63,721 nucleotides of DNA, filler included, from 13 parts of 13 records of this genome joined end to end with filler, not necessarily neighbours in it, one strand, 5' to 3'. Positions 13,501 to 63,721 are shown, numbered from the whole stretch's first letter. The notes: a model not told the origin generated them from the sequence alone. Numbers and translations: made by a program.

Positions 13501-13661
13501 CCACTGACTGCTGCCGCTTGCGAGACATCAAGCGACGGCAAATACGCTCTGGAGTGCGCAGTCGAGCGCAATGCACCTGCGAAAGCTGTGAAATCTCTTC
13601 GTGCGTCGTCCGAGTTCGACGAAGCCATCATACAGGCGCTGTTGTGCGCCGTTCGCAAAGA
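10536..13661 (+). CDS. Schlafen-type/DUF2075-like superfamily-1 helicase with helical region and C-terminal ankyrin-like repeats; intronless here, truncated at both ends
   Basis: LTPHQ, APAGAGKT, ILFCAKNQPL, IDEAH, LLSDVSQ, LTQVVRSS, LDHIAEVDGMEW, LYRGITRA; DGKYALECAVERN ankyrin-like. Confidence 0.8.
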
Positions 13662-13845: not shown

Positions 13846-16800
13846 CTAGTAAGGGCCATCGCAGCCTGACATGAAGGTACAACCTTGCGCGACGCATTTG
13901 TGCGGGTCGCAGTGACAATTCGAGACATTTCGCTGCTCCCTAAAGCGACTGTTCAAGCCGTAGAGATCGGCTGTAAACTGAGGATTCCCGCTCACGTTCA
14001 ACGACGGCTCGTAATTCCAAAAGGACCCCGCACCCTGCAATCATCGAAGCCAATCTTGTCAATCAATGGCACCACCAAAGTCGCCACACCATAGCATCTC
14101 AGGTCGCAACACACACCAGAACAAAGACGGGCACAGACGGAGAAAATCGCACCATGTAGGCCCGTGGCCACAGGAGACCCGTCACCGCCCGTGCAAAGCC
14201 GGCGTCCTGGGTCCGAGGAAACAACGACGCCGCTCTAGCCTCACCAGAATGACATGATGAGAACTCATCCGTCCAGAAAGACATTCGACCGCCGAGTAAG
14301 AGCGAGTTGCCACTGCCGTGTGGAACTCCATGGCTGATGTCATACCAGAACTGGTCCTCGTTGCCACAAACGTTATGGCCGTGCAACCGTTCTGCCAGGT
14401 AAAATCGTCCAGCGTTCGCCTCGACCGCAGGATAGCCTGCTGCAATTACTTCTGCTGCCGTGTGTGCCGACCAGCTTGCGACGATCGCGCTGTGATTGGT
14501 GACCTGGGCGCCCTGTGTTTTGAAGAGGATTTCCTCCCACCCCATCGGGATCTTGTTTAGGGTCATCACATGCCGTGCGAGTTCCTGTTCCATCCGAACG
14601 ACGGTGTCCAGCGAGCAGTTGCCAACTAGGTATGGCTCATCTCCACCAATCGAGAAGACCTTGTCAGGGAAGAGCGACGCCATCTCAGTGAAAATGTGCT
14701 TGAGGGTATTGACGGTGACATTCTGAGGATCATTATATAGCATTGCACCCGTGCACACCTTGATTGTACCCTCTCCGACCTACCCATGTGCACATGCCAC
14801 AACCAGTCAACCAGACAGCCCAGACGCCACAGAGGGGATACGTTGAAGCAAACCATTTGGCTAGAAAGCATATGCGTTAGGGTTTTCAAAAAGACGAGCA
14901 GTACGCACGAGCGCATCGTAACCATAGGCATGCTCAGGCTGTTCCATCTCTGGAATTATACGTATCCCCCTATCTTGCCCATATGCAACAAGATCCTTGA
15001 TGTCATCCTGGGTATAATAGCCTGCAAAGCTGCCATTCTTTAGGCAGCGTGGGTTTTTGCCATCGCACTCGCCGAGCAATCCAGGATACAGCTTGGACTC
15101 GATCCCGAAGCGACAGAAGTCAACCGCGTGGAGAAGAAGAACATTCAGCTTTACGAAGGACATGCTATCCATAACGTCCTTGACTAATGACACTGGCCAG
15201 AAGCGCCGCCCTGCAGAATCGTAAGGCTCAGTAGTTGACACATCGCAGCCGACTGTCAACTCTACAAGTGCAGATTCAGTCTAGCAGATTCTACATAATG
15301 TCATACCTGCATCAATCATCAGGCTTCGATGTCTGTACATTGGAGAGTCGACAATCGTCACCGTCGCGTGGGGTAGGTACGGGCTGCTACTGTTGATTGG
15401 TGCTGTTGTGTCGAATCCGGCAGGCGAGTTCACGAGCTGCGTGAAGGTTTCGAACGCATACATCGCACCGTACGTTGAAGCTGCAGTGATGTTGCAGCTG
15501 GCATCACTGATCTGCAGTGTATAGGAGTAATTCGTGTCAATTGAGAGCTCATCGTTGAGAGAGGCCAGCGTGACCGTGCAAACTTCAAGGCTGCTTGTGC
15601 TACCACTGCTATGGCTGAGATTCAGATAGCGAAGGTAGCGCGCTGCCGAGCGCTGCAGACGGCCCACTGCTGGTGCGCTTGCGGGCCCAGTTGCTATCTC
15701 GAAACAAAATGAGCTTGACAATGTCAATGGCACATCACCACTCACTTCAGAACTTCGCGGCTTGGGCCACACCCAGCCCTCTGATGCAATTGGTCTCGGA
15801 GTAGGTGGCGCTGGTGGTGTAGGTGTAGGCGGTGGTGGCGGTACCGGGGGTGCTGGCGGTGGTGGAGGAGGCAAGAAGGCTGACATTGACAAATAGATCC
15901 CTTCGCCTGGTGCAAGGGTGACATTCTTGCAGTGCACTTTCCAAGACTCGTTGACCAGGACATTGAGGCAGAGCTCAGCGCTGCGCACATTTTCCTTCGG
16001 TTTCGGAGGTGGGCATGGGATGCGACAGTGCCTCGTATTGCAAGGGTGACAGCGTGGCGCCATCTCCTCTTGACGTCCATGATCAAACCTGGAGGAAAGC
16101 CCGTCAGGCTTGTCAGATACCAGACGCGTGTCAACAACAAGCATACCAGAGGCATTCACGGCCGCTGTCTCTGCCGTGCCCCCGAGAAGACTAACCACCA
16201 GGTCTGAATCCATGCTGTGGATAATACCACTACTTCCACTGCCAACATTCACGTCATCGCCACCACTTCGAACAAATCCGATAGCAGTCAGCTTTGTAGC
16301 GTTTGGACTCGTAGAGTTCGCTACTTTCCATGACGCTGTGGAGAATAGCTCTATCACATCATTCTGCAGCAATGTCGCACCGATTTCAGAGAATTTGCCT
16401 GCTATGGTAGAGGCAGCTGTACCAATCGCCTGCATGGTGCTCGCTGCAATGCTGCTGTTCATTCCGCTGTTCCGGTATAAAGTGGCATTGCAAGCGAGAA
16501 CGTTGTGAAACCAAAGAGACCGAGCACCATACGCCATTGCGAGGTAGCTTTGCAGCCGCGGACCTAAACCAAGCGTCGAACTCTGGCAAAAGTCAATCCC
16601 AACGGATCGCGTGAAGCCAAGGTCTGTTGCATTCAGCGCCTGCAAGGTTGCTAACGAAAGCGTCAACTGCTCCGCAGAGGTAGGCAAAAGTTCGTCTGCG
16701 GTACTGGCACCGTCCACGCTGGTACCAACGCCGTCGATGGTGAGCGGCGGAAGGATTAGAACGGGAACCACAACTCCCGCCAGAGCTAACTCCTTTACAC

Positions 16801-17615
16801 CGTTCAGGCTGGTAGTGGAGCCAGTGTTGATCCCTCGTGGTAGGCCATGCTTGGCCTCAGTCGCCAGAATTGCTAGGTGTGCCCTCTGAGCAGAAGTCAA
16901 CGGCACGCTAAGATTCAAGGCAACTGCAGCTCCGACGGACGCCTTGCACCAGTAACGCAACGACGCGGTTATAATGTCACGTGGATCAGTAACAGGAATG
17001 CTACTACTGTGTATCGCAGACTCCGATCGGTCAACACCAGGTACGACTGCGAGTGCGTGACCACCGCTGATGAGCTCGGCAAAGTTCGTGTCATTTTGTC
17101 GTGACCATGCCACATGCATCACGCCAGTGCCTGTCCGCCTGGCCATGCCTAGCTCCTGATCATTGTGCACAACATCCAAGACTCCAGAGATTGGAGTGCA
17201 GCAGCTTGCTGCACCCATTGCAACTTCAATTGGGGCGAGGTTCGCCTGTGTTTTGTCAAAGGACCACTTTAGCTGCCTGCGGGCGAGGTTTACCAGCGGG
17301 TTGGACGCAGCTATCTTAGGTGGCGCCTCAGCGTTGGAGAGGAGGAGCATCGCTGCGTCACCTGCTGTCAAGTGCAGGCGCACCTGCAGCCTGGTACCAG
17401 CACCATCGGAAGTGATATTCTGCACAGATATCGGAGCGTTGACAGCACCTACCGCTGTGACGGAGGAGACTAGCGGCGAAAGAGTTAGACTGACCACTCT
17501 GGAAGTGTTCGGGACAGTCCCATTCACAGCAGTAATGCTGACGTTCACCCGTTTGTCCACCACCATCAGCAGAACACTGCGATCCCATTCACCTTCCATT
17601 GGGGGTTCTGGCGCT
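13846..17615 (-). CDS. GH20 beta-N-acetylhexosaminidase with long N-terminal extra region and Pro-rich linker; 5' partial, multi-exon
   Basis: VWPKP, YGAMYAFETFTQL, DSPMYRHRSLMIDAG/RRF (intron 15211-15306), KLNVLLLHAVD, YTQDDI, RGIRIIPE, IGGDE, GGRMSFWTD, LWPRA. Confidence 0.9.
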
Positions 17616-24934: not shown

Positions 24935-25131
24935 CTCTCCCGCCTCAGCCTGCCATCGCCAGCTCCTCCCTTACAGGCCCATACCGATGATCACTAGCAG
25001 CCCCAGCCCCAATTGTCCGTGGGTGTGGCCGCCTCGGCCGTTCGTTCGACTTGAAAATGCATGATCCCGCCTTCCCGCGGGCTGCATCGTGCATCGCACT
25101 GCATGGGAAGCCGTCAGCGTCACGCGTCGTC

Positions 25132-25158
25132 ACATGTACCTGGTACATGTACATGTAC
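25132..25158. promoter_or_regulatory. Palindromic ACATGTAC cluster in the divergent intergenic region
   Basis: acatgtacc-t-ggtacatgt inverted repeat overlapping gtacatgtacatgtac, between divergent starts at 24934 and 25301; function inferred only. Confidence 0.35.
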
Positions 25159-25300
25159 ACCCGCGGCTCCGGGCGGGTCCACCGCCTCGGGGTGGTTCTG
25201 CCGGTCGAGCGCCGCGGGCCCCCTCCGGCACGGCGTGGGTTGTGTTGCTGTTGGTGTTGGGTCTTCGCGTTGTTCATTTTTCCCGTGGGGACGAATCAGA

Positions 25301-27967
25301 ATGCTGTCCACGGCGGCATTTCTGGCAGTGACACTCAGCAGCAGCGCCGCGCTGCAGCAGGTGGGCCACGACTGGATCCGTGGCTCGGGCTTTGCGGGCG
25401 GGCCGATGGCGGCAGCGCAGACGCCACTGGCCAGTTCTGCGTCGAACCACAGCTTGGCGGCGCTGGCGGCCACAGGTGCGACTGTCGTGCGGCTGTACTC
25501 GACGTGGTACATGGCGAGCCCGAGCAGCACGGCTATCGGACCGAAAAATACTGCCGCGTCGCCCCTGCGTAGCGAGACTGATGCGGAGCTGCGTGATACA
25601 CTCGCCATGGCAGCGCAGCTGGGGCTCCGCACAATTCTGTCGCCGCGGGTGGACTTCGACTGGGACCAGGCACAAATGGCGGGCTCGGCGCCGTATAACA
25701 CGAGCGTCGGCGCGCTGGGTGCGAGTTTTTCCGCCGCGCAGTGGCGCGCATGGTTCGTGGCGTACCGCACATTCGTACATCACCACGCTGCCATCTGTGC
25801 GGTGGCGCCACGATGCTCTGGGCTGGTGCTGGCGGACGAGCTGCGTAGTGCCTTCACATCTGTAGACGAGACCGGCTGGCGGACGCTAGCAGACAGCACC
25901 AGACAGCTTCTGCCGGCCGGTGCCAGCCTGCTCGTCATGACCTCACGCCCTGATGCGGTGACTTGGTGGGCAGCAGTTGACTACATCGGCTTCAATGCCG
26001 AGCAGACACCTCTCGCAAGGTACACGTACACGAAGGCCCCCGACGAGGCGGTAATCACGTCAGGCATTCACGTACCCTGGCCACCCTTGCCGTTTGAATC
26101 GACTCCAATGAAGCTCGGCCAAGTTACGTGGGGCGGCAACGTCACGCTGCTACAGTGTGAGGCAGCATGCTCCAGCGGCGTGTCTCACTCGTCCGGCGTC
26201 TGCACCGCAATCCAGTGGGACTCAGCGACCAAACAATGCTACCTTTACGCCCATGTGACAGGGACTAAACCGGCTGGTAGCTCGACGTGGCGCTCGTTCA
26301 AGCAATCGCTCGCACATGGCAGCGCCGCTTCTTGCAGCGATACCGCGGGGCTGGTAGCCAGCTGGCAGGCCGATGGGATTCTCGAGACTCTAGCCGCGCT
26401 GCACAAGCGCCACAATAAGACCGTAGTTGTGAGCTTCGGATACCAGAGCCGACCCGACGCCCATCGCGCACCAGCAGGTGCGTTGCGTCCAGGGTACACA
26501 GACTGCTCCGTCTGGATGCGTTGCTACGACGACGCCTGCCAAGCATCACTCGTGCAGGCCGCGCTGACTGCCTTCTCCAGCGAGGCATTCTTCGGTGGCG
26601 CATTGTACTCGTACTGGAGCACGGACCCATCGCAAGGTGGCCGTAGCGACTCTTCACGGGCAGTGCGTGGGAAATCTGCAGAAGGGGTGCTCAGAAAGTG
26701 GTTTGGCGCCGAGTCGGTAGCTGTACCGCCTATCGATGTCTCACTAGCGCTCCCAGACACTACTGATTTAGTGAAGAGTGCGACTGCAGCGTCTTCGATA
26801 CTTGAAGCCTCGTCCGGTCCAGCACCTGCAGGTATGCGCAATGGCTATGTGTTTGGCACCGGCGAGTGGAGCGCGGCGAACCTCACCCTTACGGAGGTCA
26901 AGCAAAGCATGGATAATGCCGTGGCTGCTGGTGCTAATGCGCTGGAGTTCATGGTCACTTGGTACGCGTTGGATGGTGTCGAATCTACTGTGTTTTATCC
27001 AGCAAACGACAGCTCGCCGTTGGCAACAGTCAGTGACACTGATTTGACTGCCTTGTTCAAGTACGCCAAGCAGCAGCACAATTTGACGACTGCATTCACG
27101 CCGTTTCTCGACCCTATTTGCAATGATCCAAGCAATGGTTGCTTGAATTACTGGCGGGGGCAGCTCTGTCAGGGTTTCAACACAAGTCAGTTTGACGCTT
27201 TCTTTGCTAATTACTCAGCGATAATTCTGCGGTATGCCAAGCTAGCGGAGGCTTCCGGTGCGGTCGACGAGTATTTTGTCAGCCACGAGCTCATGACGTG
27301 CGTGAAGTCCGCGCCAGCGCACTACTGGACCACGTTGCTGACTGAAACTCGGAAAGTCTTCTCTGGGAGGTTAGCAGTGGCTCTCAATTGGGGTCCTTTC
27401 ACAAGTCAAAACCCTCAAATCATTCCAGGGTGGCTGAGCGAGTTGGACTTCCTTGGACTCGACTGCTATTACAATAACCCCGTGGCGAGCAGCTTGCCAC
27501 CATCACGGCCTTGGCAACTTCCAACGCGCGAGCAGCTCTTGGCAGGCTGGACTACCACACCCAGCGTGGGTTCGCTCCCATGGGTTGAGGCAATCGCGAA
27601 CTACTCAAAAGCGCTCGGTGATATCAGCATCGTCTGTACAGAGGTTGGCTATCAATCGAAACCTAAACCCTGGATCAATCCGGCTGGGACGGCTAGTCTC
27701 GATACGAGGGACTGCACAGTGCAAAGTCTCTGCGTCTCCACGGCCTCGCAAGCTTTGAGCTACGAGGTGCTATTCAGTGCACTTTATCCTCAAAAGTGGT
27801 TCGGTGGGTTTTACCTTTGGCTCTGGCGCAGCGACCCTTCCGCAGGGGGACCGTCGGACGACTCGTTCGGTGGCGCTGGTAAGGTGGAGACCCTGGCAGT
27901 GCTGGACCGTTGGTGGAAGCAAAAGAAGCCTGTCATTGGTGACGCTAGCGAACCAGCATCTCTTTAG
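25301..27967 (+). CDS. Secreted protein with two GH113/GTA-TIM-barrel-like domains and a PAN/apple-like insert; intronless
   Basis: Signal peptide MLSTAAFLAVTL; duplicated motifs W/FF-x2-Y-x2-(F/I)-x2-(H/Y)A, (D/H)EL, D(Y/F)(I/L)G, GYQS, DC(S/T)V, FGG-x3-W-x-(T/S)DP; CEAAC...CTAIQWD...CYL apple-like. Confidence 0.75.
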   Translation: MLSTAAFLAVTLSSSAALQQVGHDWIRGSGFAGGPMAAAQTPLASSASNHSLAALAATGATVVRLYSTWYMASPSSTAIGPKNTAASPLRSETDAELRDTLAMAAQLGLRTILSPRVDFDWDQAQMAGSAPYNTSVGALGASFSAAQWRAWFVAYRTFVHHHAAICAVAPRCSGLVLADELRSAFTSVDETGWRTLADSTRQLLPAGASLLVMTSRPDAVTWWAAVDYIGFNAEQTPLARYTYTKAPDEAVITSGIHVPWPPLPFESTPMKLGQVTWGGNVTLLQCEAACSSGVSHSSGVCTAIQWDSATKQCYLYAHVTGTKPAGSSTWRSFKQSLAHGSAASCSDTAGLVASWQADGILETLAALHKRHNKTVVVSFGYQSRPDAHRAPAGALRPGYTDCSVWMRCYDDACQASLVQAALTAFSSEAFFGGALYSYWSTDPSQGGRSDSSRAVRGKSAEGVLRKWFGAESVAVPPIDVSLALPDTTDLVKSATAASSILEASSGPAPAGMRNGYVFGTGEWSAANLTLTEVKQSMDNAVAAGANALEFMVTWYALDGVESTVFYPANDSSPLATVSDTDLTALFKYAKQQHNLTTAFTPFLDPICNDPSNGCLNYWRGQLCQGFNTSQFDAFFANYSAIILRYAKLAEASGAVDEYFVSHELMTCVKSAPAHYWTTLLTETRKVFSGRLAVALNWGPFTSQNPQIIPGWLSELDFLGLDCYYNNPVASSLPPSRPWQLPTREQLLAGWTTTPSVGSLPWVEAIANYSKALGDISIVCTEVGYQSKPKPWINPAGTASLDTRDCTVQSLCVSTASQALSYEVLFSALYPQKWFGGFYLWLWRSDPSAGGPSDDSFGGAGKVETLAVLDRWWKQKKPVIGDASEPASL

Positions 27968-37285: not shown

Positions 37286-37385
37286 NNNNNNNNNNNNNNN
37301 NNNNNNNNNNNNNNNNNNNNNNNNNNNNNTTAATTAATTAANNNNNNNNNNNNNNNNNNNNNNNNNNNNNNNNNNNNNNNNNNNN
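37286..37385. other. Artificial contig spacer
   Basis: N44-TTAATTAATTAA-N44. Confidence 0.98.
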
Positions 37386-40300
37386 TGTCTCAGACGTGTG
37401 GTGCTGGCGGCGACGCTAGCGGCAGATGGGATTATCGGAACCTCGAGGGCTACGGCTGGACCACGCTTCTGAAGTCTGAATCAACTGCAAATGTGCATTT
37501 TGCGCCATGGGAAGATGTGGTGGACGAGAGCTACCGTGGTTGTTTTGTGTCGAGTCAGACCGATGCTGAGAGAGATGTGCAGCATGATATGACCGAAATC
37601 CGCCATACTTGCAAGAACCTCCAAACTGAAGATTATCAAGTAGTCGGCCACAGCGACGAGGAGTACAACGGAGTGTATTTCGCGTTTGCTATTGTGAATG
37701 ATCGCCCAGCATTCCGAAACGCTGACAAAAACAAATTTCTGTACTTTTTTGACCCTACACAGTCCCTTGGGGAGGCTCACGATCACGGAATTGCCTCCTG
37801 GTCCTTGGATGATCGTGATCCAACCGGCGATCTTGAACCGACCTGGCTAGTACGCGACTGGCACCGAGGAGGGTGTTCTGTTGACGCAGAACCGAACATA
37901 CGCACGGGTATCGTGAGCTGGCAGCAGGATAAGGGCGCTGTGATGAACGTAGACGGGACTCAAACTCGCGCCGAGGAAGTAACCTATCGAGCAGAAGAAG
38001 CTCACGATCGATTGGGGATCGTACCTGTTCCACGACCCGAAGAGGGGTTCGGATGCGAGTGGGAGCATTCTGCAGAGATGCCGTCGCCCTCATACGGAGA
38101 ATGCGCTGAAGTATGCTCTGACTTTGCGTTCATGGCGTTGCGAGGCGCGAATATCTGCCTGTGTGGAAACACGTACAACCACTTTGGTCATGCCGCCGCA
38201 GCAGAGTGCGGAGCCCGTGGGATGAACTGCGGCAACGGCGTTGCGACAAACGAATCTATCGCAGCAGCAGCGGTGTACAAAGTGCCGCGTCCCTCCGCTG
38301 GTTTTGCCACAGCTGGTGGTCGACTCGAAGTAAGATTGGGTGGCGTGGGCGTTGTGCGTTACGTCAGATTTGCAGGCAACTCTGCCACAGACGGTGGGGC
38401 TGTGTATGTGCGCGATGGATCGCTTACGATGATGTCGGTCGAGGTCAAAGACAACAGTGCGATCCGCGGCGGTGGTCTATTTATAGCGGGCGACGATTAT
38501 TATGGATACATAGTGATGAAGCTACGGATATCGCTTTCTCATGTTGCCTTTCGCAACAACGTCGCAAACCAGGGTGGTGCAATATTTTTGCAGGGGCCGC
38601 CTTTGGATGCTGAGCATCTGCTCTTTACTGGCAATCGCGGGATCGAGGCAGGGGCAGCAATCTACGTGGCACAGACGCCTAACAGGGCTGATACGCTCGT
38701 GGCATTTCGCTCCACACGCTTCAGCGCGAACGAGTCTCCTGCAGGTACTGTGACTATCGAGGCGGGTGTGTCTCTGGCGTTGACTGACACAACATTTGAC
38801 TCCAGCCAGAGTATCACCTGCGACGGCAGCGTCTGCAGTGCTGTCTCAGACCAGGAGTCACAGACAGGCCGGGATATCATGGCAATAGGCGCCAGGGAGC
38901 ACCTGAGGCTGCAGGATGTCACCTACAGCCCTAGGTCACCTTCGGTGAGGATTGAGCCGGACATCTCCGTTGTCAATTGCCACGCAAACCCCTGCCCCGC
39001 GGGATTTTTCTGCACATACGATCCATCTCTATTCTCCATGGCGTGCACACAGTGTCCTGCGGGCTTGTTTAGCAGCGATGGGGAGTCATGTGTGGTGTGC
39101 GACTCCGGCACACGGCCGAACGAGAATCGAACGGGGTGCGAAATATGCCCCCTTGGTTACTATTCGGATAGTGGCAGCGTCTGTCAGATTTGTCCATTCC
39201 CTCTCGTGACCAACTACAACCGCACGACATGTACGCGATGCAATCCTGGCACTGGACCAAACACTGAGAGGACTGACTGCCAGCGTTGCACCGATCGCGA
39301 TGCGTCAGTGAACGGCGAGCCATGTGAACAGTGTCCAGACGACAGGATTGCATCGCCAAAGAACGATGCCTGCAAAACGTGTGGCAATCGCGAGGTGGCC
39401 GTCGACGGTGTGTGCAAATGTGCACCTGGTAGCTACAACAGCACAGATGGAGTGATCTCCTGCTCAGTTGGGCTAGATTGCTTTCTAGAGCAGACGCGGA
39501 TTACTGGGTGCGAGCCTTGCCCAACTGAGTGTAGCAGGTGTCCTGTTGGCCCGGATGGACGCTCATCGATGACGTTGATTCAGCCAGGCTACGGTCTGCC
39601 GCAGCGCCTTGCCAAGAGAGGCCAGAGCCTCTCGCAGATCCGTGCGAGTGAGACAATGCATGTCGACCTGTATCCGTGTGTTGCTTCAATGTGCCCAGGA
39701 GAGCACTTTTTGGTTCCGGCGTCGTTGGTGAATGCGAGCAACGTCGATGACGTCTTTCTGACTTCGACAGAGCAGCTGCGGGATGGCTCCACAGAGGAAG
39801 CCGTACGCGTGGCGACAGCCCTGGTCGAGGCAGCTGGGAAACACGGCTGGACGCCACCAACGTCGCTGCACTCCAGTGGTCCTCTCGCGGACGTCCAGCG
39901 CGACTTCCAGAGCGACAGAACCACTCTGCTGGCGCTTCAAGCTGCTCTGCGCGATTACTATGTGAGCTCGCCCGATTCACACGTTGTCATTTATGATTCA
40001 GCCATGGAAGCACTCACACAGAGCCACCCGATTATTTCAACGCGCATTCCAGAGCGTGACATTGAGAGCGCGAAATACACAGTATACAGCTGCAGGATTG
40101 GCCACAACGAGGAATCTCCAGTGTGCGCTCTGTGTGATGACGAGTACGCTGGCGGCTCGACAAACTTGTGCGCTAGCTGTGACGCTACTGAGAATGGCAC
40201 CAAGGTTGTGCTTTTCGTCATAATGCTTGCATTCGCTTATCTTCTCTTGATTCACATCCCGGTGAAGATCATGGAAAAGCGTGAACTACTGCGGCAGCAG

Positions 40301-43255
40301 AACGAAGCTGAGCTCAGCACGGATGGATCAGTCCATGTTGCGCAAGCGCGAGATGAGAAGGCCTCCATCATCGTATATGGGAAGATCCTCATCAGCCATT
40401 TTCAAATCTTAATGCAGTTCAAAATCGTTATGGATGTCGATTTCCCAGTACAGTTTGAACAGATACTCAACAGCATGCGATGGCTAAAGGGTGACATCGT
40501 TGCGTATTTCAACATCAAGTGCGCGGTGCCCATGAATCTTTACTCAGAATTTTTCTTAGTGATTGCGATCATTCCACTATTTTTGGCAATGTTGCTTTCA
40601 ACGTCGTGCATTGGCATCTGGTTGGAGACACGGCAGGCAGCTTCTGAAGCTCAGAAGCCACCATCCTCAGAAGTCGAGGCACCTGTTGCCGCTCTGTCTG
40701 AGCGGCTGGCAGGTTTGTCTGGCAGCACAATGTCGCAGCTTGAACTTGATAACCGGCGCACGAAGACACAGCGAACGCAGAGCATTCTCGGCCGCATGTT
40801 CATTCTGGTCTTCCTAATTTGTGCGTACGCAAATCACCTCTCAGCTGTCCCATTCACAATAGGACTAAATATTAAGTGCTAACACTGTTGCATCGTGTGT
40901 GCAGATCCGCTCGTCACGCTGCGCATCTTTCACATGTTTGGCTGTCGAGAGCTGAAGCAGAGTGCTGGTGAGCACACCGACGCTGAGAGCTGGCATCGCT
41001 ACGACTATTCCATAAACTGCAACAGCGACGAGTATCTCAACTTCCGGACCCTCGCACAACTTATGGTTCTACTGTATCCACTCGGGATCCCAGCAGCTGT
41101 GCTATGGATCTTCCATCGTAACTCTGAAAGGCTGACTGACGAGTCGTTGCTTGGCAACACTACGCCCGTCTCCGATGGTACCGATGAGCCCGGATCGAAT
41201 GCGATCGATTCAGCAGCCGCGTGGGCAACAGCACAAGAGGCTGCAGTCGTACCGTGGTGGTACGGCGATCGAAGCACTTTCAACTTTATGGTTCGCGACT
41301 TCCAGCCTCGCTATTACTTCTTCGAGATCGTCGAATTTATGCGTAAGCTGGGTCTTACTGGGCTGGTGATGATCATTGAGCCAGGAAGTGTCATGCAGAT
41401 CTGCGTTGCTATCACGATTGCTTTTGCTTTTGCGGCTGTCAATGCTGTGGTCCGTCCTTACGCCGACCCGCGTGCCAACTACATGCGACTGCTGGCTGAT
41501 ACCTCGCTTTTCTTTACGCTCCTGTGCATTCTGGTTTTGCACTTTGTCGACCATTTGGATCCATGTGAACCACTGCAAAACAGCTTTATCGGCTGGTTCC
41601 TGATCATCATGAACTTCGTGCTGCTACTGCTGTTCGTCTGCGCTGAGATGGTGTCGCGAGCGGTACGCATGTACAGTGATAGTCTATTCGTCGGGATCTC
41701 GTACAGGCCTGATGCTCCACTAAACATGCGCATAGATGATCAGTTCAGCACTGGACTTGTCCAAGCCACAAACGTGGCTGCTAATGTCTACCGTGGCGAA
41801 TACAAGGCTGCCGCCAGTGCCCAATCTGTGCCGTGTGCCGTCAAGATACGCCCCAAGAACCAGGACAGCAGGGTCGTTGATATCGAGGCAGCCATCATGC
41901 TCAGTTGCAACCACTCGAACGTTGTGCGGATCTATCACCTGGAGGAGGACGCAGGGATGTATTATTTATGCACCGAGCTGTGCAGCGAGCTATCGGTTGA
42001 GATTGCTGTACTACGAGGAAAAGTGGAGTCGGCGGACGCACGCATCAATCTCTGTCGTTCGATGCTAGAAGGTCTGCAAGCGTTTCACACTGCTGGCTTC
42101 GTGCACGGCAACTGTACACCATCAAACTTTGTCTTGGGCGATGATGGTGTGCCTCGTCTATGTGGCTTTTCTTCCTCGAACGTGTCAAATCATGCCGCTG
42201 CAGCAACAAAGCTTAATACGATGGGCGGAACCGTCGGCTACATGCCGAGCGAAATCATTAACGGGCGGCGGATATCTATGAAAGTGGAGGTTGCGAACCC
42301 AGTAGCCGTGGATACATTTTCCCTGGGGTGCACACTTTGCTTCGTCCTCTCCGACTCGCAGCGGCCATTCCACGGCAATCTGATGACAAGCACAGTTGAG
42401 CGCAACATCCAGACGGGTGTCCATGGCGTTGAGCATATCGGCAGCCTGTCCACTGAGGCAAAGCATCTGATAGCAATGATGGTGAGCCACACACCTGGTG
42501 CACGGCCACCGTTGAACTACATCCTCAAGCATCCGCTCTTTTGGGACATGACAGAAACAGTGAAGTATCTTGCAACAATAGGCGGCGCTCTCGGGACACG
42601 ATTCGCCCGTAAGTCAAATCCGTTTGTCAACGACATCGAACAGGCGGTTGACGCTGCCCTTGGATCGTACAACGAGGCAGATCCTGCTGCAGGAGGGAGC
42701 TGGTCTAGACAGCTGTGTGACAAGTACCCACTTGGAGGGGACTGGGGCAAGCAGCAGCGCCCGCCTGCGGACGAGGAGCATGCCTACCACATCTACGGCG
42801 CGCCTCCTTCAAAGAAACAAGCAGCGCAGAGAGAGGCGCAGTTGGCGGCTGGCAAGTTATCAGGAACACACCAAGCCAAGGAGATCCGCTCTGTTGGCCT
42901 TCTCAAGTTCATTCGGAACGTCAGCGTACACGGCGAGCAGATGCTCCAAATGAATCGCTTCGAGTCGAAGGACGCACTACAGCACTACCTGATCGATCCA
43001 TTCCCATGGTTGCTGATCGCTGTCTTCGAAGCCGACGAGAAGCACAGATTTTCTGACAAGTGGAACGACAGCAGTGGTAGCGGCGCCAACACTGACGGCG
43101 AGGGCATAGATCGTGGCGGAGACTTGACCTCGATGACTGCGAACCCTCTCTCGGGTACCACATCGTCGCCGGCAATCTTGGGCCAGCAAGATAATGGAGG
43201 AGCCGAGCCAGCAGGGCCACCACCGGCCCAAGTTGGCGAGGTGACAGCGCTATGA
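37386..43255 (+). CDS. Multipass membrane receptor: split WSC + GGA/FxxN beta-helix + Cys-rich repeats + 7TM-like region + IRE1-type pseudokinase + KEN ribonuclease; 5' partial, one intron 40821-40904
   Basis: Intron gtgcgt...gctaac...gcag joins the two long ORFs in frame (FLI-Y-PLVT); kinase AVK, HSNVVRIY, TELC, GTVGYMPSE, VDTFSLGC, HPLFW; KEN LLKFIRNVSVH and FPWLL. Confidence 0.85.
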
Positions 43256-43602: not shown

Positions 43603-44260
43603 CTAACAGCTCCCAAAACAGCACGGGTCCTTACCTATGGCGAGCGCGATATCGTCTAGGCCACGCCGAAGATGCGAGACTGCCATCGGACCATTGTTGA
43701 CCAGCATAGAGAATGTACAACCGTGCACGTAGCCTGAGAGGGCTGACGGGGGCGCGGAGCGCCCGCGCATGGCGCAGATCGGGGCGGAAATCCGTGGGAG
43801 TGGGCAGCCCGCCAAGCACCCCTTCCGCTGCCAGAGTGGCTGCCTCGAGGCGGCGCCAAATGGCGTCCGCTGCCAGCTCGCGGGCGTCGCGCGGTACGTC
43901 GTGAAGATGCCGCCTGCATGGAAGGGCTTGGGCGGCTAGGCAACTTGGTCCCAGTACAATCATCATTGGTGACTACAGCGCCTGCAATATCAACTCAAGT
44001 CTCAGCTTCGTTAGCACCAGCTCCAGCGAGCCGTCCGGTGCCACTTCGATGTAGTTGGGCGAGTTGGTCGCGCGCAGCTCGTCTTCGCTGGGTGTGCCCT
44101 CGACGAAGCGCGCACCACCGAAATGGTTGCGCACCGGCGGCAGCACGGTGTGCATGGCCAGCAGTACATTCGACTGCAGCGTCTGGAAGCGGCCCGGCTC
44201 GTTGCGCAGGGTGGCGACGTCCGTCCGCCGCGCCGAAGGCCGCGATCGCCTCCTGCACGA
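43603..44260 (-). pseudogene. Possible degenerate fragment resembling a peptidase S13 (DacB/PBP4) C-terminus
   Basis: SALSGYV...FSMLVNN...RRGLDDIALAI; upstream frames are broken and no KTG motif is seen. Confidence 0.25.
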
Positions 44261-49938: not shown

Positions 49939-49972
49939 CTAGGACAGTAGGATCCACGCGCGATACATATCC

Positions 49973-52900
49973 ATGGAGTATCCTGTGAGCGCACGCGTAC
50001 ACGCCAGTGGGGTGGCGATGCCGCACCTCGCTGCAACTAGATTCACGTTGGTGCTCTGCTGGCAGTGGAGCTATTCCTGCGCTATAGCTACTGCACTGCA
50101 CCGCACGCCTGCTGCTGCACCAGGTAGTGCCAGCTATAGGATGCTGCAGCCTGCGGCTCAGTCGACTGAATGGGCGAGTGATCACACGCTGGGCGGCGGC
50201 GGCGGCGGCGGTGGTGATGGTAGTGGTGGTGGTGATGCTGGTGCCCCACCGAACACGGAGGTAGCGATGCCACCAAGCACCGTGTGGAGTTCGCCGACCC
50301 AAGAGCCTGGCACGAGCGAGTTCTATGGGCACGCGACGGCGCAGGGGGCGATGCCCATTGGCAACGGCGACACGACGGCGCTGGTCTGGCCTGACTTTGA
50401 AGCCGGTGCCGTGCACATTCAGGTGGCGAAGCAGGACGCGATGGGCAACGACATGGCACTGATGAAGATCGGCAGTGTCAGCCTCATCGCTGGGCTGCCG
50501 CTGCGCCCAGAATACTTCAAGCAGACACTCCACCTCGCCAACGCAACAGTGAAAATCGAAGCTGGGGACACAGAAGCCGAAGCTACTACAGTGACGGTGT
50601 GGGTTGACGCGAGCTCCAACTGCGTGCGGGCTAGAGTCAAGCGCCGTGGCACGATCGGGATGTCGAGGGGCGACGCGGGGCACGGCACAGCTGCTGCTGC
50701 TTCGCCGATGGTAGTCGAGCTATCCAGCGTGCGTGAAATGAAGACTGGAACTGCTGCCTGGGACACCGGCGGTGGGCTAAACAACTGCACCTACTGCACA
50801 GGCACGACCTACTGGCAACCGCCCGACACCTTCGACGACCCTCCCGATGCACCACCGACGACGCCACTGCTCTTGTCGCACAGCAATCCTCGGAACTTCA
50901 GCATCGTGGAGGCGGTCTTGACACAGCAGGGCTTAGGCGACCTGCTGCGCCAGCCCAGAATTCGCGCGCTGGAGCAGTGGACTGGGCGTACATTTGGTCT
51001 TGCTGTAAGCGGTGATGGATTGGACCGCCTCAGCGCGCGCTTCCTTGTTTCTTCGTCGGATGCCAGCGAGCACGAGGTGACAGTCACGACGCTCAGTGCA
51101 CTCCATCTGCCATCCCAAAATGGCGCGTGGCGCAACGAGGTGTTGCAAGCACATCGGCGTGACCGGGGTGTTGCTTATGCTAGCGCATGGACAGCACACG
51201 AATCGTGGTGGCGGAGCTTCTGGGACCGAAGCAGTGTTCAAATCACGCCTGGGATCAACAACACAAGCCAGACGGCTGTGGATGAGGCGACCATGCTGAC
51301 AAGGCAATACGCCAACGCACGATACTTGCAGATTATTCAGTCCCGCGGACAATGGCCGATAAAGTTCAACGGGCAGCTCTTCGTCAACCACTTGCCCCCC
51401 TTTGCAGACTTTCGGGAGTGGGGCAGCGACGAGTGGTGGCAGAATACACGACTACCATACGGAAATATGCTCTCTGCCGGCGACATCGACGGGTTTGACG
51501 TGATACTTGAATTCTATCTTCGAATGCTACCATTTTCTGTTGCACGTACGCAGTCATACTTTGACCACCCTGGTGCGTTCTGGACTGAGACAAAGACCCT
51601 GTTTGGGGCATATTCGCCGCGTGGCTGGGGCTGTCCAAATCCGGGCGAGCCGGGGTATCAGAGTAACTACAGCCAGATCAATTTCAGCAATTTTCACTGC
51701 TACCGGCCAGCTCATTACCCTCAGGGCTACGAGATGTCCAACAGCACCCATCTTGACTTTCACGGGGGTGGGCAGGTTGCAATGATGGTACTCGACCATT
51801 ATCTGTACACGGGGAACTCCACTGCACTCCAGAGGTACCTACCAATCGCGAGTGCTGCCGTGGAGTTCTTCTACTGGCATTATCCGCAGCGCACCAGTAC
51901 ACCCGATGGTGGGATGTTTCAGGTATTTCCTGCACAGGCACTCGAGGCCTACTGGTGTCCTCTTCCAGTCCGATCCGGGGAATGCTCAACAGACGATGCA
52001 CCTACACTGGCTGCGCTGCACGCTGTGCTTCCACGGCTACTCGAGCTGCCCGATACACTCACGAGTGCAGAGCAGCGAACGCTGTGGACAACGTTTCTCG
52101 ATATCCTGCCACCACTACCAACCAAGATATGCTCTCTGCGCACCAACACCACTGGCGATAATCAAGTAGCTTGTGACGAAGCTAACGCTGGCAAGATGGT
52201 GCTCTCGCCTTGTCGTGTTTGCTCCAACATCACCAACCTGCAGGAAACACCCGAGCTTTACTCTGTACATCCGTTTCAGGTCATTACTGCTGGGCGTGCC
52301 CACGCTGCTGCTCGCGCATCACGCGGTGCTGGCCGAGTCGAAGCAGTCACAACGTCAAGGGTAACACCGTCACCCAAAGAGACGGAGCTACAGCTGGTGA
52401 TGGCAGTGCGCAGCTATAAGGCGGCACCCCTGGCCCACTACGACGCTGACAATCCGTGGATCAGCAACATTGGCTGGCAGCAAGTGCGTATCGATAGACA
52501 CATCTCTAATACCTCTACCTCTAGAAACATACACACATGTAGATGTTGTCCAGGTAGAGGAAGTAACTTGAGCTGAACCTGGGGCGTGGTGGATATCTGG
52601 ACGCATCGTTCAACCCGATGGCCATGAGAAAATGTCGATCTGCAATACTCAATGAATATCAATCTCACCATCAGCTGACCTCGGTCGGTGTTCAGGGACT
52701 GATGAACGCTGCACTTCTCGGCCAGAGTGAAGATGCGTTTAGAATGGCACTGCAGCGGGCGTTCCTCCCGCCGGCAGCTGGAGCACGGTGGATTGGCTTT
52801 GCACAGCACCTGCAGGTTCGAACATCGTCTCAACTGAATCTTGTTCTGTCTCATGTCTGATTGCTGAAACGAACTCTGTTCATTGCATTCGACGAAAAAG

Positions 52901-60606: not shown

Positions 60607-63600
60607 CACAGTCAGCGCAGCTGGATGAGTCGCCTTGGCACACGCCACACGAGTCTGGTTCAGCAGAACCACCCCATACACCTGTGCAGTCAAGCGTGCA
60701 GTGGTCCGTGGAGTCTGCGTTGCACGATCCGCAGTTGTCTTCTGTTGCTGGGCCGTTCGGCACACCTGCACAATCGGTACAATCGTTTGCACCACCGCAG
60801 ACTCCACAGTCGTCAATATCCGCGCTTCCGCCAGTAACACCAGCACAGTCAATTGGAAGTGCCTGTGCAGACCCTGAAGTTACGTCCAGATCTGTTGCTG
60901 CTGCAACCCCGGAGCTGAGGCTAAGAACCAAGTCGCCAAACTGTAGTCGCCGGCGGTCTCCATCCACAACTCTCAGCTCAAACGAGAACGTTACCGTAGG
61001 TGGGCCAGTACATGTGTTGCATTCATTGACGGCACAGTTTTGAATTGTGATGAATTGCTCCGCCAAAGAGAGCGAGCTTGACACAGCGGTGATAATCTCA
61101 CTTCGCAACGTATCGTCGTCACACGTGGTTTGATCGCCAGGCAGCTCGATTGGTACCCTAACGGACTGTCGACACACACCATTACCCCCACACACGCCAC
61201 AGACGTCCACTTCAGCTACCCCGCCCCATTCTCCATCACAATCGAGGGTGCATTTGTCTACCGGATCGACGCAGTTGCCGCAGTCATCTGTTACACTCCC
61301 GCCGTTCGCAACCCCTGCACAGTCAGGAACACAAGCTGATCCGTCACCTTCACAGATCCCGCACGCATCCTGTCTCGCACTTCCTCCCCAGATACCAAGG
61401 CAATCGCGTACACAATCGTTCGTGTCATCTATATCACAGACCGCGCATCTGTCAACAGTAGCGGCACCATTGGGAGTCCCTGCACAGTCTGCACATGTCG
61501 AATTGTCGCCATCACAGACACCGCAGGCATCCAGATGTTTGCCACCTTCAACGAAAAGGACGCCGTCACAACCTACGACCGGAATGACTGGTGGGGGCTC
61601 GGGAAGCTCACACCCACGACCACCATACCTAGAGCCGATGAAACCGGATAGGCAAGGTGAGCACTCAAAGTAGCCTTCAAAATTGACACACCCCGAGCTG
61701 TACTGGTGGCAGCATCCGCATGCAGCCAGCTGGGCGCCTGTGGCTGTCCGCTGATCGAAACCGAAGCAAAGCTCAAAGTCAACGGTAGACGTGTTGCATA
61801 CACCACCAATAGAAATGCTGGTGTGGTAGTCAGCAGCGCACTCGTCAATATCGACGCAAGATTGACCACCATCGGCCGTGTAGCCAGTTTTGCATTTGCA
61901 GTTGGAACGATCGATCTCACTTAGAGGCTCCGAATTTGCCCAACACTGGCCACACACAATGCCATCCGTACTGTAGAACTTGGCAGTCGCAGTGTCCTGA
62001 AGACGGCACGACTCACAGCGACTCTTGTCACTCGAAGAAGCAGTTCCAGGGCTGCATAGAACGCACTCAGCTCCTGTACTTGCCTGTCCGGCCAAGCAAG
62101 GGATGCATTGGTCTCGACTGTCATTCGGTGCCGTTCCTGCAGCACACTGGATGCAGACTGCGCCTGTGGCAGAAATGAAGCCATCACCAATGTCGCTGCA
62201 GTCCTCGCAGCTCGATCGCTCAGCGTTAGGCTGAGTTCCAGTTTCACATTCAAGGCATAAAGCGAGGCCGCCAGGCGAGTATTTGTTGTCGCCAATGAAT
62301 GCACAGCTTTCGCAGGATCCCTTGTCTGTTGATGGCTGCGTCCCAGCTCCACATGCCGAGCAACCACTGCCGTCACTGTACTCACCTGGGCCGCAATCAT
62401 CGCAACCGGAGCGATCTGCATTCGGCTGCTTGCCGTTTCCGCATGCCAGACACTGTTGACCGCCAGTCGAGTAGCCAGATGGACCAACCACGTCTGCACA
62501 GGCCTCACACGAAGCACACCCAACACCTGCAGTTCCAACAGCGTAAGCACCGTGAGCGCCATACACGCCTGTTGCTGGCACAGCATCGGGCTGCCAACTG
62601 ATCTGTGCACTATCGTCCCCGCAGTCTGGCTGTTCCCCAGGAGCACATGTCTGGCAGCTGGTTCCATCGTTGCTGTACTTGCCGAACGCACAGTCGACGC
62701 ATTGCGTTCCAGCTGTGTTCGGGGCAGTACCATCAGGGCAAGGCTCGCACCAGCCCAATGAGCCGGCCTGCCCTGGTGTCGACGTGCACGGATCACAGCC
62801 AGCGCGGATGAAACCGCCGTTTTCGTCCGGCACGACCACAGGGCCGCGACCAGCTGCACATTTGGTGCAGAACGCCTCGCCACTGGCAGCTTGGAATGGA
62901 TAGACAGTGTATGTCTGAATGCCATTGGCAGCAGTTGCTGGCTCCTCAAGGTTGCCGCAGTCCTGGCATCCAATTCCTGCGCTACCGGCCGGACAGTTCA
63001 CACAGTGTGAGCGTTCATCGTTTGGAGTTAGCCCACTACTGCAAGGAGTACAAAGTCCGTTGGACGAAGCGTCGTTTCCAGCGCACGGAACACAGCTGTC
63101 GAAAGCTTCGTTCGGCTCACTGCCAGTCGGACACGGCTCGCAAGCAAACCGGCCTGAGTTAACCACGAATGGTTGGCCACAAACTACGCACTCAATACCG
63201 AACGAGGAGTATGTGGTGCCAGTACAGTCCTCGCATGCTGACCTGTCAGTCGCTGGCTCTGATCCCACGCTGCATGCTTCGCACGCCGTTTGTTCAGCGT
63301 TCGCTACCTTTCCAGGCTCTGCGCAGGTCTCACAGGCTGCTCCCCCAGGGCTAACGGAGCCAGCAGAACATGGGGTGCAGTCCACTAGCTCGTCACACAG
63401 TGCGTTGTCGAAGTCACCGGATCCGTCCAGACACTGCGTGCCAGCTGGACATTGGAAGGGTGAAACACACGACCCTTGGTCAGACGCCACTGAGCTAGGG
63501 GCGAGGCAGTCCGCCCTGCACAATCCATCACCTTTTGAGTATGTGTTGGGAGGACAAGGCTCACACGCTGTCTGTTCAGCGTTGGCCCCTTCTCCCGGCC

Positions 63601-63721
63601 GACAATTGGAACAGGTGATGCCGTCCAGTCCGACAGTTGTACCAGGGCATGCCGAGCACCACAGCGAGTAATGCGTGTACTCGCAGCCCTCGCCGGCCGC
63701 GCACGGGTGTGTGTTGCAGTC
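60607..63721 (-). CDS. Large Cys-rich surface protein fragment (GCC2/GCC3-ephrin-like repeats, Ca-EGF, DCAG/DxCGVC repeats, RRRLQ motif); open at both ends
   Basis: C-x2-C-x2-G-x2-PN repeats; CVDIDEC; DCAGxxxGxAxxDxCGVC repeats; uninterrupted frame across the contig. Confidence 0.85.

Follow-up and report, generated by a model that had tools for sequence, protein, structure and literature searches.

A stretch of DNA of 63,721 nucleotides (nt), analysed as a whole and hereafter called the window, carries on its plus strand at 37386-43255 a gene whose predicted product joins a long adhesion-like ectodomain, a multipass membrane module, an IRE1-like pseudokinase and a divergent KEN ribonuclease (RNase) domain. 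This combination appears to be undescribed. The gene is real, and it comes from an uncultured marine protist. In the reading that we prefer, to which we give a probability of roughly 55%, a variable adhesion-like ectodomain and a nine-helix membrane module of the Pkd2/Flc type are coupled to a cytosolic pseudokinase and KEN domain, and clustering would switch on a cytosolic RNase. The parts had been proposed in an earlier reading of the same DNA made from its letters (the sequence-only reading), and its claims are taken up below with the results that bear on them.

The coding sequence is divided between two long open reading frames (ORFs) in the same frame, at 37334..40882 and 40883..43255, and the sole separator between them is a TAA at 40880-82. 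This stop codon lies inside a predicted intron of 84 nt, with GT at 40821-22, AG at 40903-04 and the sequence GCTAAC at 40878-83, approximately 22 nt upstream of the acceptor; all three signals were found where the sequence-only reading had placed its canonical intron. Removal of the intron leaves 5784 nt, which encode 1927 aa plus a stop (a partial protein, truncated at the 5' end), in agreement with the earlier claim that the two ORFs fuse into more than 1900 aa. The predicted exon junction at 40820/40905 reads TTCCTAATTT on its upstream side and ATCCGCTCG on its downstream side in the spliced sequence. The peptide across it, MFILVFLIYPLVTLRIFHMFGC, aligned without a gap to the single-ORF homologues P0003, P0005, P0047, P0202 and P0204, and its counterpart in P0003 is MFILVFLTYPFITMRIFHMFGC. 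The 28 codons between GT and AG have a counterpart in no homologue aligned. Read-through of the TAA, or a variant genetic code, was considered and rejected, because these 28 codons are missing from the homologues and are bounded by GT..AG. Moreover, the ORF of the closest relative, P0002 (67% identity), begins where the second ORF of the window begins, which is consistent with an intron common to both genes. The motifs KILISHFQI and YFFEIVEFMRKL that the earlier reading had picked out in the membrane region were both found, and its FLIYP motif arises from the splice.

The gene occupies most of a contig at 37386-44638. The window consists of 13 contigs (3-6 kb) joined by spacers, which are N runs around TTAATTAATTAA with 12 occurrences; since it is thus not one molecule, genes on either side of a spacer are not linked. 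The N run with the spacer before this gene ends at 37385, and 37386 is the first base of the contig, so the true N-terminus is absent from the sequence. The sequence-only reading had let the gene start at 37386; the coordinate is right, but the position is a contig edge that this reading had overlooked and not the beginning of the gene.

Independent metagenome contigs were found for the locus. At least part of the stretch is present in 19 sequencing runs, nearly all of them labelled seawater or marine metagenomes, and DNA contigs from three other runs match the gene at 99% identity or more. Among them, a DNA contig of run X1 (record 5) includes the intron, and a DNA contig of run X2 (record 19) spans the transition from membrane module to kinase, where the earlier reading had asked about a chimera; the bridging contig, at 99% identity or more, argues against one. 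A run from an RNA library gave two exact contigs within exon 1, at 39540-39690 and 40468-40675. These are a hint of expression, as an RNA library can contain DNA. Most of the gene is without cover in the RNA run X19. As a separate observation, a marine metagenome contig of run X3 (record 26) matches from exactly 40905, and 26 unplaced letters precede the match. It is possibly a spliced copy, which was not counted since loose ends are common in that run.

The kinase part was recognised by both sequence and fold. Pfam Pkinase matched the window protein at E = 6e-27, and the best PDB match of the kinase-KEN part was IRE1, at E = 1e-17 with the single sequence and 8e-32 with the family profile. 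The alignment with IRE1 passes through the motif HPLFW into the start of the KEN domain and resumes at its end. A model of the pseudokinase-KEN part (window 41669-43090) was then made by AlphaFold from an alignment of 30 sequences; its predicted local distance difference test (pLDDT) was 90.3 and its predicted template modelling score 0.89. With this model, the Foldseek matches listed (30 entries, ranks 1-49) were all IRE1 kinase-RNase structures, aligned over approximately 470 columns. In VIA-align, IRE1 took 27 of the 29 top rows (ranks 1-27 and 29; Z 26.9-30.6) over model residues 8-467, KEN included, and other kinases aligned just to model residues 5-295. The model thus suggests a helical KEN fold directly after the kinase C-lobe, matching IRE1 end to end, and the IRE1-like kinase fold proposed earlier was borne out.

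The catalytic residues of the kinase are altered throughout the family. The Asn of an HGN that stands in place of HRD was kept in 17/17 sequences, and GF in place of DFG in 17/18; therefore, the domain is a conserved pseudokinase. The VAIK Lys was kept in 13/14 sequences, suggesting that the pseudokinase may still bind nucleotide. A complex prediction with two copies of the pseudokinase-KEN part, run without an alignment and without controls, scored 0.00 and is no evidence either way on pairing.

The KEN domain was also reached by a profile of its own. When a KEN-only profile was searched against PDB (E<=1), all 18 matches were IRE1 or RNase L, the best at E = 4e-4 and 0.0019, and the profile aligned the LLKFIRN..H stretch of the family with LLKFIRNLGEH of RNase L. 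Within the family, the R-N-x3-H motif keeps its Arg in 25 of 28 sequences, its Asn in 27 and its His in 26. The available part of a survey of HEPN domains describes Rx4-6H as the HEPN/KEN active site and His and Arg as required for the activity of RNase L (PMC3710099). The window sequence, R-N-V-S-V-H, has this spacing, with a polar residue after the Arg. Beyond the KEN domain, the disordered C-terminal tails (window 43067-43252; P0002-P0008 and P0203) end in [ST]-x-[LVIF], mostly as VTAL, in 14/36 distinct tails, and NP[LVIM] occurs within 24/36. Both could serve as short linear motifs recognised by, for instance, PDZ-type or sorting partners.

The multipass membrane region of the earlier reading is confirmed and can be read as nine transmembrane (TM) helices. 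In its first part, before the intron, hydropathy peaks were found at aa 940-958, 1057-1075 and 1132-1150, and over the whole module there were seven strong and two weaker peaks. The AlphaFold model of an intron-free homologue, P0003 (58% identity), has a pLDDT of 83, with values above 90 in the helices, and the corresponding membrane helices are visible in it. When nine helices are assumed, the four cysteines of the loops all lie on the predicted outside, and the loops predicted to be cytosolic have none. In addition, P0202 begins with a signal-peptide-like segment. From the helix count, the loop cysteines and the signal peptide of this homologue, we infer a topology with the N-terminus outside and the C-terminus inside, in which the pseudokinase-KEN part would be cytosolic.

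The second part of the module resembles Pfam PF06011 ('TRP'). The match of the window scored 23.1 bits against a cut-off of 28.5 and covers model positions 278-401, corresponding to the last four helices; in eight kinase-bearing relatives the match was likewise below the cut-off, and in some it reaches model positions 165-423. The cut-off was passed by P0113 (38.3 bits), P0114 (41.1), P0131 (31.9), P0105 (29.2) and P0059 (30.9), all matched by the family profile with E near 1e-35. P0059 has the kinase and KEN, and the other four are kinase-less. The similarity points to a membrane module related to PF06011 (the fungal Pkd2/Flc type), although the window's own score lies below the cut-off. The model described for fission-yeast Pkd2 in the available part of its source has nine TM helices between an extracellular N-domain and a cytosolic tail (bioRxiv 10.1101/2022.08.11.503631). 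Weak EF-hand matches, all below the Pfam cut-offs, were seen beside or between the parts of the membrane module in the kinase-less P0128, P0131 and P0155, and P0125, another kinase-less relative, bears WWE. Across the relatives, a common membrane chassis thus seems to be paired with cytosolic parts of several kinds.

More than 900 aa of ectodomain lie upstream of the membrane module. A beta-helix is supported by Chlam_PMP, which reached 31.8 bits where the cut-off is 20.6 and matched best at aa 386-400. In the Cys-rich repeats, TNFR_ELAPOR1_6th matched at 21-24 bits, below the cut-off of 33.2, and this region aligns to the Cys-rich repeats of P0052. Therefore, the adhesin-like, Cys-rich ectodomain of the sequence-only reading was recovered, with a beta-helix above its cut-off. 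For the WSC domain claimed together with the beta-helix, the match was weak: WSC (PF01822) matched at E = 0.0066 with 17.1 bits against a cut-off of 27.8, over model positions 24-69 of 82. The suggested glycan binding derives from this subthreshold match and is best taken as a lead. No usable match was obtained when the ectodomain ORF was searched against the atlas. Pfam gave no match to an ML-like (TRP_N) N-domain in the ectodomain as far as its incomplete N-terminus allows, none to a PQQ/beta-propeller-like lumenal domain in the first ORF (ORF1), whose extreme N-terminus is missing, and none to ankyrin repeats in the window protein.

The relatives were collected and classed to see how far this architecture is shared. 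An exhaustive profile search found 135 proteins at E<=1e-30, and 227 fetched proteins were classed by sub-profiles for the three modules (membrane, kinase and KEN). All three modules were present in 27 of them, kinase and KEN in 15 (mostly fragments), KEN alone in 19 (mostly fragments), the membrane module and kinase in 13 (fragments, or the form with TIR described below) and the membrane module alone in 30. The other 123 were not classed as members of the family; 116 of these matched the kinase profile alone and 7 matched none. The architecture search suggested by the sequence-only reading thus returned at least 27 proteins with the full set, and single ORFs of other origin (P0047, P0202, P0203, P0204, P0052 and P0053) have their domains in this order too. 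An unrelated match, P0145 (1104 aa), has two kinase and two Ribonuc_2-5A stretches in a tandem kinase-KEN arrangement.

The distal ectodomains of the relatives differ from one another. They are of the EGF type in P0202 (1775 aa), EGF plus ephrin-receptor-like in P0204 (2130 aa), NCD3G/ephrin-receptor-like in P0203 (2284 aa) and CUB plus LRR in P0052 (2364 aa). By BLASTP, ORF1 and P0202 have aa 676-1107 in common (40% identity, E = 3e-87) and share nothing before aa 676. In a maximum-likelihood tree of 25 kinase domains with a midpoint root (P0139 was dropped for lack of a long kinase match), the kinase domains of the window protein and P0202 nevertheless fell in one well-supported subclade; hence, close relatives have exchanged their distal ectodomains. 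The effector end can be replaced as well. In P0009 (850 aa), where the membrane module and the pseudokinase are the same, a TIR_2 domain (35.4 bits, above the cut-off) replaces KEN. P0009 is sister to the KEN-bearing P0007 with a support of 99/96 and is nested inside the family. In the same tree, the family clade was separate from four IRE1-like sequences.

Picozoa are an abundant but uncultured marine lineage. The organism-named family proteins (P0004, P0059, P0050, P0155, P0131 and P0195) come from Picozoa single-cell co-assemblies of EukProt in six cases out of six, and there are several paralogues with differing ectodomains per Picozoa assembly. The most likely source of the window is a picozoan or an organism closely related to one. 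The scan of viral contigs gave no relative, and a scan of metagenome contigs gave just four short loci, L001-L004, without useful context.

The features of the gene are collected in Table 1.

Table 1. Features of the pseudokinase-KEN gene and spacer sites of the window (positions counted from the first letter of the window)
Feature	Position	Strand	Basis or remark
Contig edge	37386..37387	+	Gene open at 5' end; start codon and signal peptide missing
N-terminal part of ectodomain, ORF1 aa 1-232	37388..38083	+	Pfam: no match at E<=10; atlas search: no usable match
Weak WSC-like Cys motif, ORF1 aa 233-275	38084..38212	+	Pfam WSC below cut-off
PMP-type parallel beta-helix repeats	38300..38902	+	Pfam Chlam_PMP; limits read from sequence
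Cys-rich repeats, TNFR/ELAPOR1 or ephrin-receptor-like type	38975..39562	+	Weak Pfam match and alignment to P0052
Membrane-proximal stalk conserved in family, ORF1 aa 676-935	39413..40192	+	BLASTP against P0202
Membrane module part 1: TM1-TM3 and start of TM4, end of exon 1	40205..40820	+	Hydropathy; helices of P0003 model
Intron, GT..AG, 84 nt, with in-frame TAA (40880-82) and GCTAAC	40821..40904	+	Sequence; gapless homologues; DNA contig of run X1
Membrane module part 2: remainder of TM4 to TM9, PF06011-like	40905..41641	+	Pfam PF06011 match
IRE1-like pseudokinase	41780..42541	+	Pkinase match; best PDB match IRE1
VAIK Lys	41843-45	+	Pseudokinase residue
HGN in place of HRD	42104-12	+	Pseudokinase residue
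GF in place of DFG	42164-69	+	Pseudokinase residue
Divergent KEN (HEPN) RNase domain	42542..43066	+	Fold match to IRE1 KEN; KEN-only profile
R-N-x3-H motif (R-N-V-S-V-H)	42914-42931	+	KEN domain
C-terminal tail, disordered, ends VTAL then stop	43067..43255	+	Low pLDDT in P0003 tail; family tails compared
Spacer sites	5758, 10480, 13706, 17660, 23486, 29223, 33774, 37330, 44683, 49853, 55803, 60551

In the preferred reading, the ectodomain would face outward or into a lumen and the pseudokinase-KEN part would lie in the cytosol. The membrane module would be clustered or rearranged by a ligand or else by a mechanical or ionic stimulus, and the pseudokinase domains would then pair as those of RNase L do, with no need for phosphorylation. 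As the kinase is unable to phosphorylate, the pseudokinase is proposed to be a dimerisation scaffold. The paired KEN domains would form the active site and cut cytosolic RNA, and the outcome could be translation shutdown, selective decay or a specific splice. The sequence-only reading had supposed that the RNA cleavage could be triggered by a ligand from outside or from a phagosome; this is an idea that we infer and that is made more plausible by the ectodomain swapping, the paralogue with TIR for KEN, the signal peptide in a homologue and the reading with the N-terminus outside and the C-terminus inside. By analogy, the exchange of KEN for TIR and the shuffling of ectodomains suggest a role in sensing non-self (virus, prey or pathogen), which is the least secure step. 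Taken further, and as a tentative proposal, Picozoa would possess a one-protein pathway from the surface to RNA decay, in which diversifying ectodomains and a Pkd2-like module switch on an RNase L-like nuclease (or TIR) on contact with virus, prey or pathogen.

Several observations weigh against this preferred reading. Ribonuc_2-5A (PF06479) scored 17.4 bits in the window against a cut-off of 23.3, and six of the seven family homologues that matched it were below the cut-off (14.9-21.1 bits), P0065 alone lying above it with 23.5; the matches in the family always fall on model positions of about 51-124. Canonical IRE1-like proteins from the same search scored 90-142 bits on the KEN model. Since these scores are so far above those of the family, the KEN domain here is a very divergent branch, and the KEN claim of the sequence-only reading stands by fold, KEN-only profile and R-N-x3-H motif while missing the Pfam threshold. 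With the N-terminus of the window protein missing, the outward topology relies on the signal peptide of a homologue and on helix counting. An RNA contig across the intron, the check that the sequence-only reading had suggested with RNA reads, was looked for in the metagenome runs, and none was found among the RNA-library contigs. The RNase activity, the dimer, the ligand and the location are all putative. Furthermore, if PF06011 modules are constitutive oligomers like channels, clustering alone may not be the switch.

A different emphasis would make the protein chiefly a channel or transporter-like protein of the Pkd2/Flc type that senses force, calcium or the cell surface. The pseudokinase-KEN part would then be an appendage for regulation or scaffolding, or would serve as a housekeeping RNase for membrane-localised mRNAs, rather than as an immune effector that a ligand triggers. 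The membrane module is indeed common to many kinase-less relatives, including the 30 of 227 proteins with the module only, and some module-only relatives pass the PF06011 cut-off or carry the weak EF-hand matches. In the available part of a report on fission yeast, Pkd2 is a calcium-permeable channel opened by membrane stretch (PMC9727806), and the pseudokinase of the window is dead as a kinase. However, a role as a scaffold alone would hardly account for an R-N-x3-H motif kept in 25-27 of 28 sequences, the TIR that replaces KEN in a nested paralogue fits an effector role, and shuffled adhesion-type ectodomains suggest ligand diversity. We consider this reading unlikely, with enough in its favour to be kept in view.

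Far less probable is that the gene is the divergent IRE1 orthologue of its organism, a sensor of unfolded proteins that resides in the endoplasmic reticulum (ER) and has unusual lumenal and membrane regions. IRE1 heads the PDB matches in both sequence and fold, and it is nearly universal in eukaryotes according to the available part of the HEPN survey (PMC3710099). An orthologue would nevertheless have to lack the PQQ/beta-propeller-like lumenal domain that the IRE1-like P0139, P0156 and P0165 have, and to carry nine helices, not one. The catalytic Asp and DFG are lost family-wide, the KEN scores are 15-23 bits against 90-142 bits in IRE1-like proteins, several paralogues with different ectodomains occur per Picozoa assembly, and the family clade is apart from the four IRE1-like sequences, as placed by a midpoint root only. 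An artefact is very improbable, be it a chimera formed in the assembly of single-cell or metagenome data or a pseudogene in which the TAA is a genuine stop, so that two separate products or none are made. The contig is short and from a fragmented assembly, an in-frame stop divides the two ORFs and spliced RNA was not seen in the RNA-library contigs. Nevertheless, single ORFs elsewhere keep the same domain order, the codons between GT and AG are unmatched in every homologue aligned, the ORF of P0002 starts at the same place, and contigs of three other runs reproduce the gene. With these alternatives weighed, we retain the reading of an ectodomain-controlled, clustering-activated RNase.

By its modules, the protein belongs with the kinase-KEN nucleases IRE1 and RNase L and, more loosely, with the PF06011 membrane proteins. 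Two sensing logics of kinase-KEN nucleases are well studied: IRE1 responds to stress in the ER lumen and RNase L to 2-5A in the cytosol. Compared with IRE1/ERN1 (yeast Ire1p and human IRE1alpha; PDB 2rio, 3fbv and 6w3k, among others), the window protein likewise has a kinase fold followed directly by the KEN RNase, with the best sequence and fold match over both domains; both are membrane-anchored, and here the RNase is predicted to be cytosolic. IRE1, however, has one TM helix, a lumenal sensor and an active kinase, whereas the window protein has nine predicted helices, an adhesion-type ectodomain, HGN for HRD, no DFG and a far more divergent KEN. With RNase L (PDB 4o1o and 4oav) it shares the order of pseudokinase scaffold and KEN, an almost identical LLKFIRN..H stretch and, as proposed by analogy, dimerisation without phosphorylation. 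RNase L is described, in the parts of the literature available, as soluble, sensing 2-5A through its ankyrin repeats and confined to vertebrates, whereas the window protein is an integral membrane protein from a protist and has no ankyrin repeats.

The fungal PF06011 'TRP' proteins (S. pombe Pkd2, Trp663 and Trp1322; yeast Flc), as described in the available parts of their sources, resemble the window protein in their extracellular N-domain, nine-helix membrane domain and cytosolic C-terminus, and there is Pfam similarity over the last four or more helices. They differ in having an ML-like lipid-binding N-domain and a short disordered tail, whereas the window protein has its long ectodomain and a pseudokinase-KEN tail. 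TIR- or HEPN-bearing immune receptors, such as plant TNLs and bacterial defence systems, have exchangeable effector domains. The likeness is that of one sensor chassis with alternative effectors, here KEN in most members and TIR_2 in P0009. In contrast to those receptors, there is no NB-ARC or STAND; the chassis is the membrane module plus pseudokinase, and an immune role would be assigned by analogy. In the available part of the HEPN survey, the KEN fusions listed are with kinase, ankyrin, CCCH, UBI and BRCT only (PMC3710099), and the word 'transmembrane' has no occurrence in the available text of the paper on the origin of RNase L. In the literature searched, we found no description of this architecture, in line with what the sequence-only reading had said, nor of any Picozoa kinase-KEN protein; the supplementary tables of Picozoa genome papers may list them.

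The other contigs of the window carry ordinary eukaryotic genes, including secreted-type glycoside hydrolases. Proteins of this type were seen at 15284-17614 (-), 25055-27964 (+) and 49943-52573 (+); their domains are an accessory domain of GH20, GH113 together with PAN, and DUF5703_N. They fit a polysaccharide-degrading heterotroph. A polysaccharide-degrading repertoire is reported for Picozoa in the literature available to us, where their trophic role is still called unclear. At 60608-63721 (-), a large open frame with Cys-rich TNFR_ELAPOR1-like and cEGF matches runs off the end of the window and may be the ectodomain of another receptor of this general kind. A 1041-aa helicase-like ORF at 10537-13659 (+) matches ResIII, the Schlafen-group-3 helicase and UvrD_C_2. 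Downstream of the gene, the approximately 200 nt at 43736-43933 had a word depth of 68-90 in two metagenome runs against 2-5 elsewhere on the contig, and variant letters are frequent in it, with loose ends at 43732 and 43933; this looks like a repeated or widely shared element.

If the preferred reading is true, kinase-KEN proteins would have a third input logic, that of a multipass Pkd2-like module bearing shuffled adhesion-type ectodomains. The swap of TIR for KEN would tie KEN to the modular exchange of effectors that is typical of immune systems. If the more tentative one-protein pathway exists, a KEN RNase would for the first time be seen under control from outside the cell, and the family would represent a class of protist innate-immune receptors with exchangeable death effectors, evolved independently of the animal and plant systems. 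The cytosolic fragment is expressible, and it bears on whether KEN activation scaffolded by a pseudokinase predates vertebrate RNase L. For Picozoa, these proteins would be a first candidate family of signalling or defence receptors.

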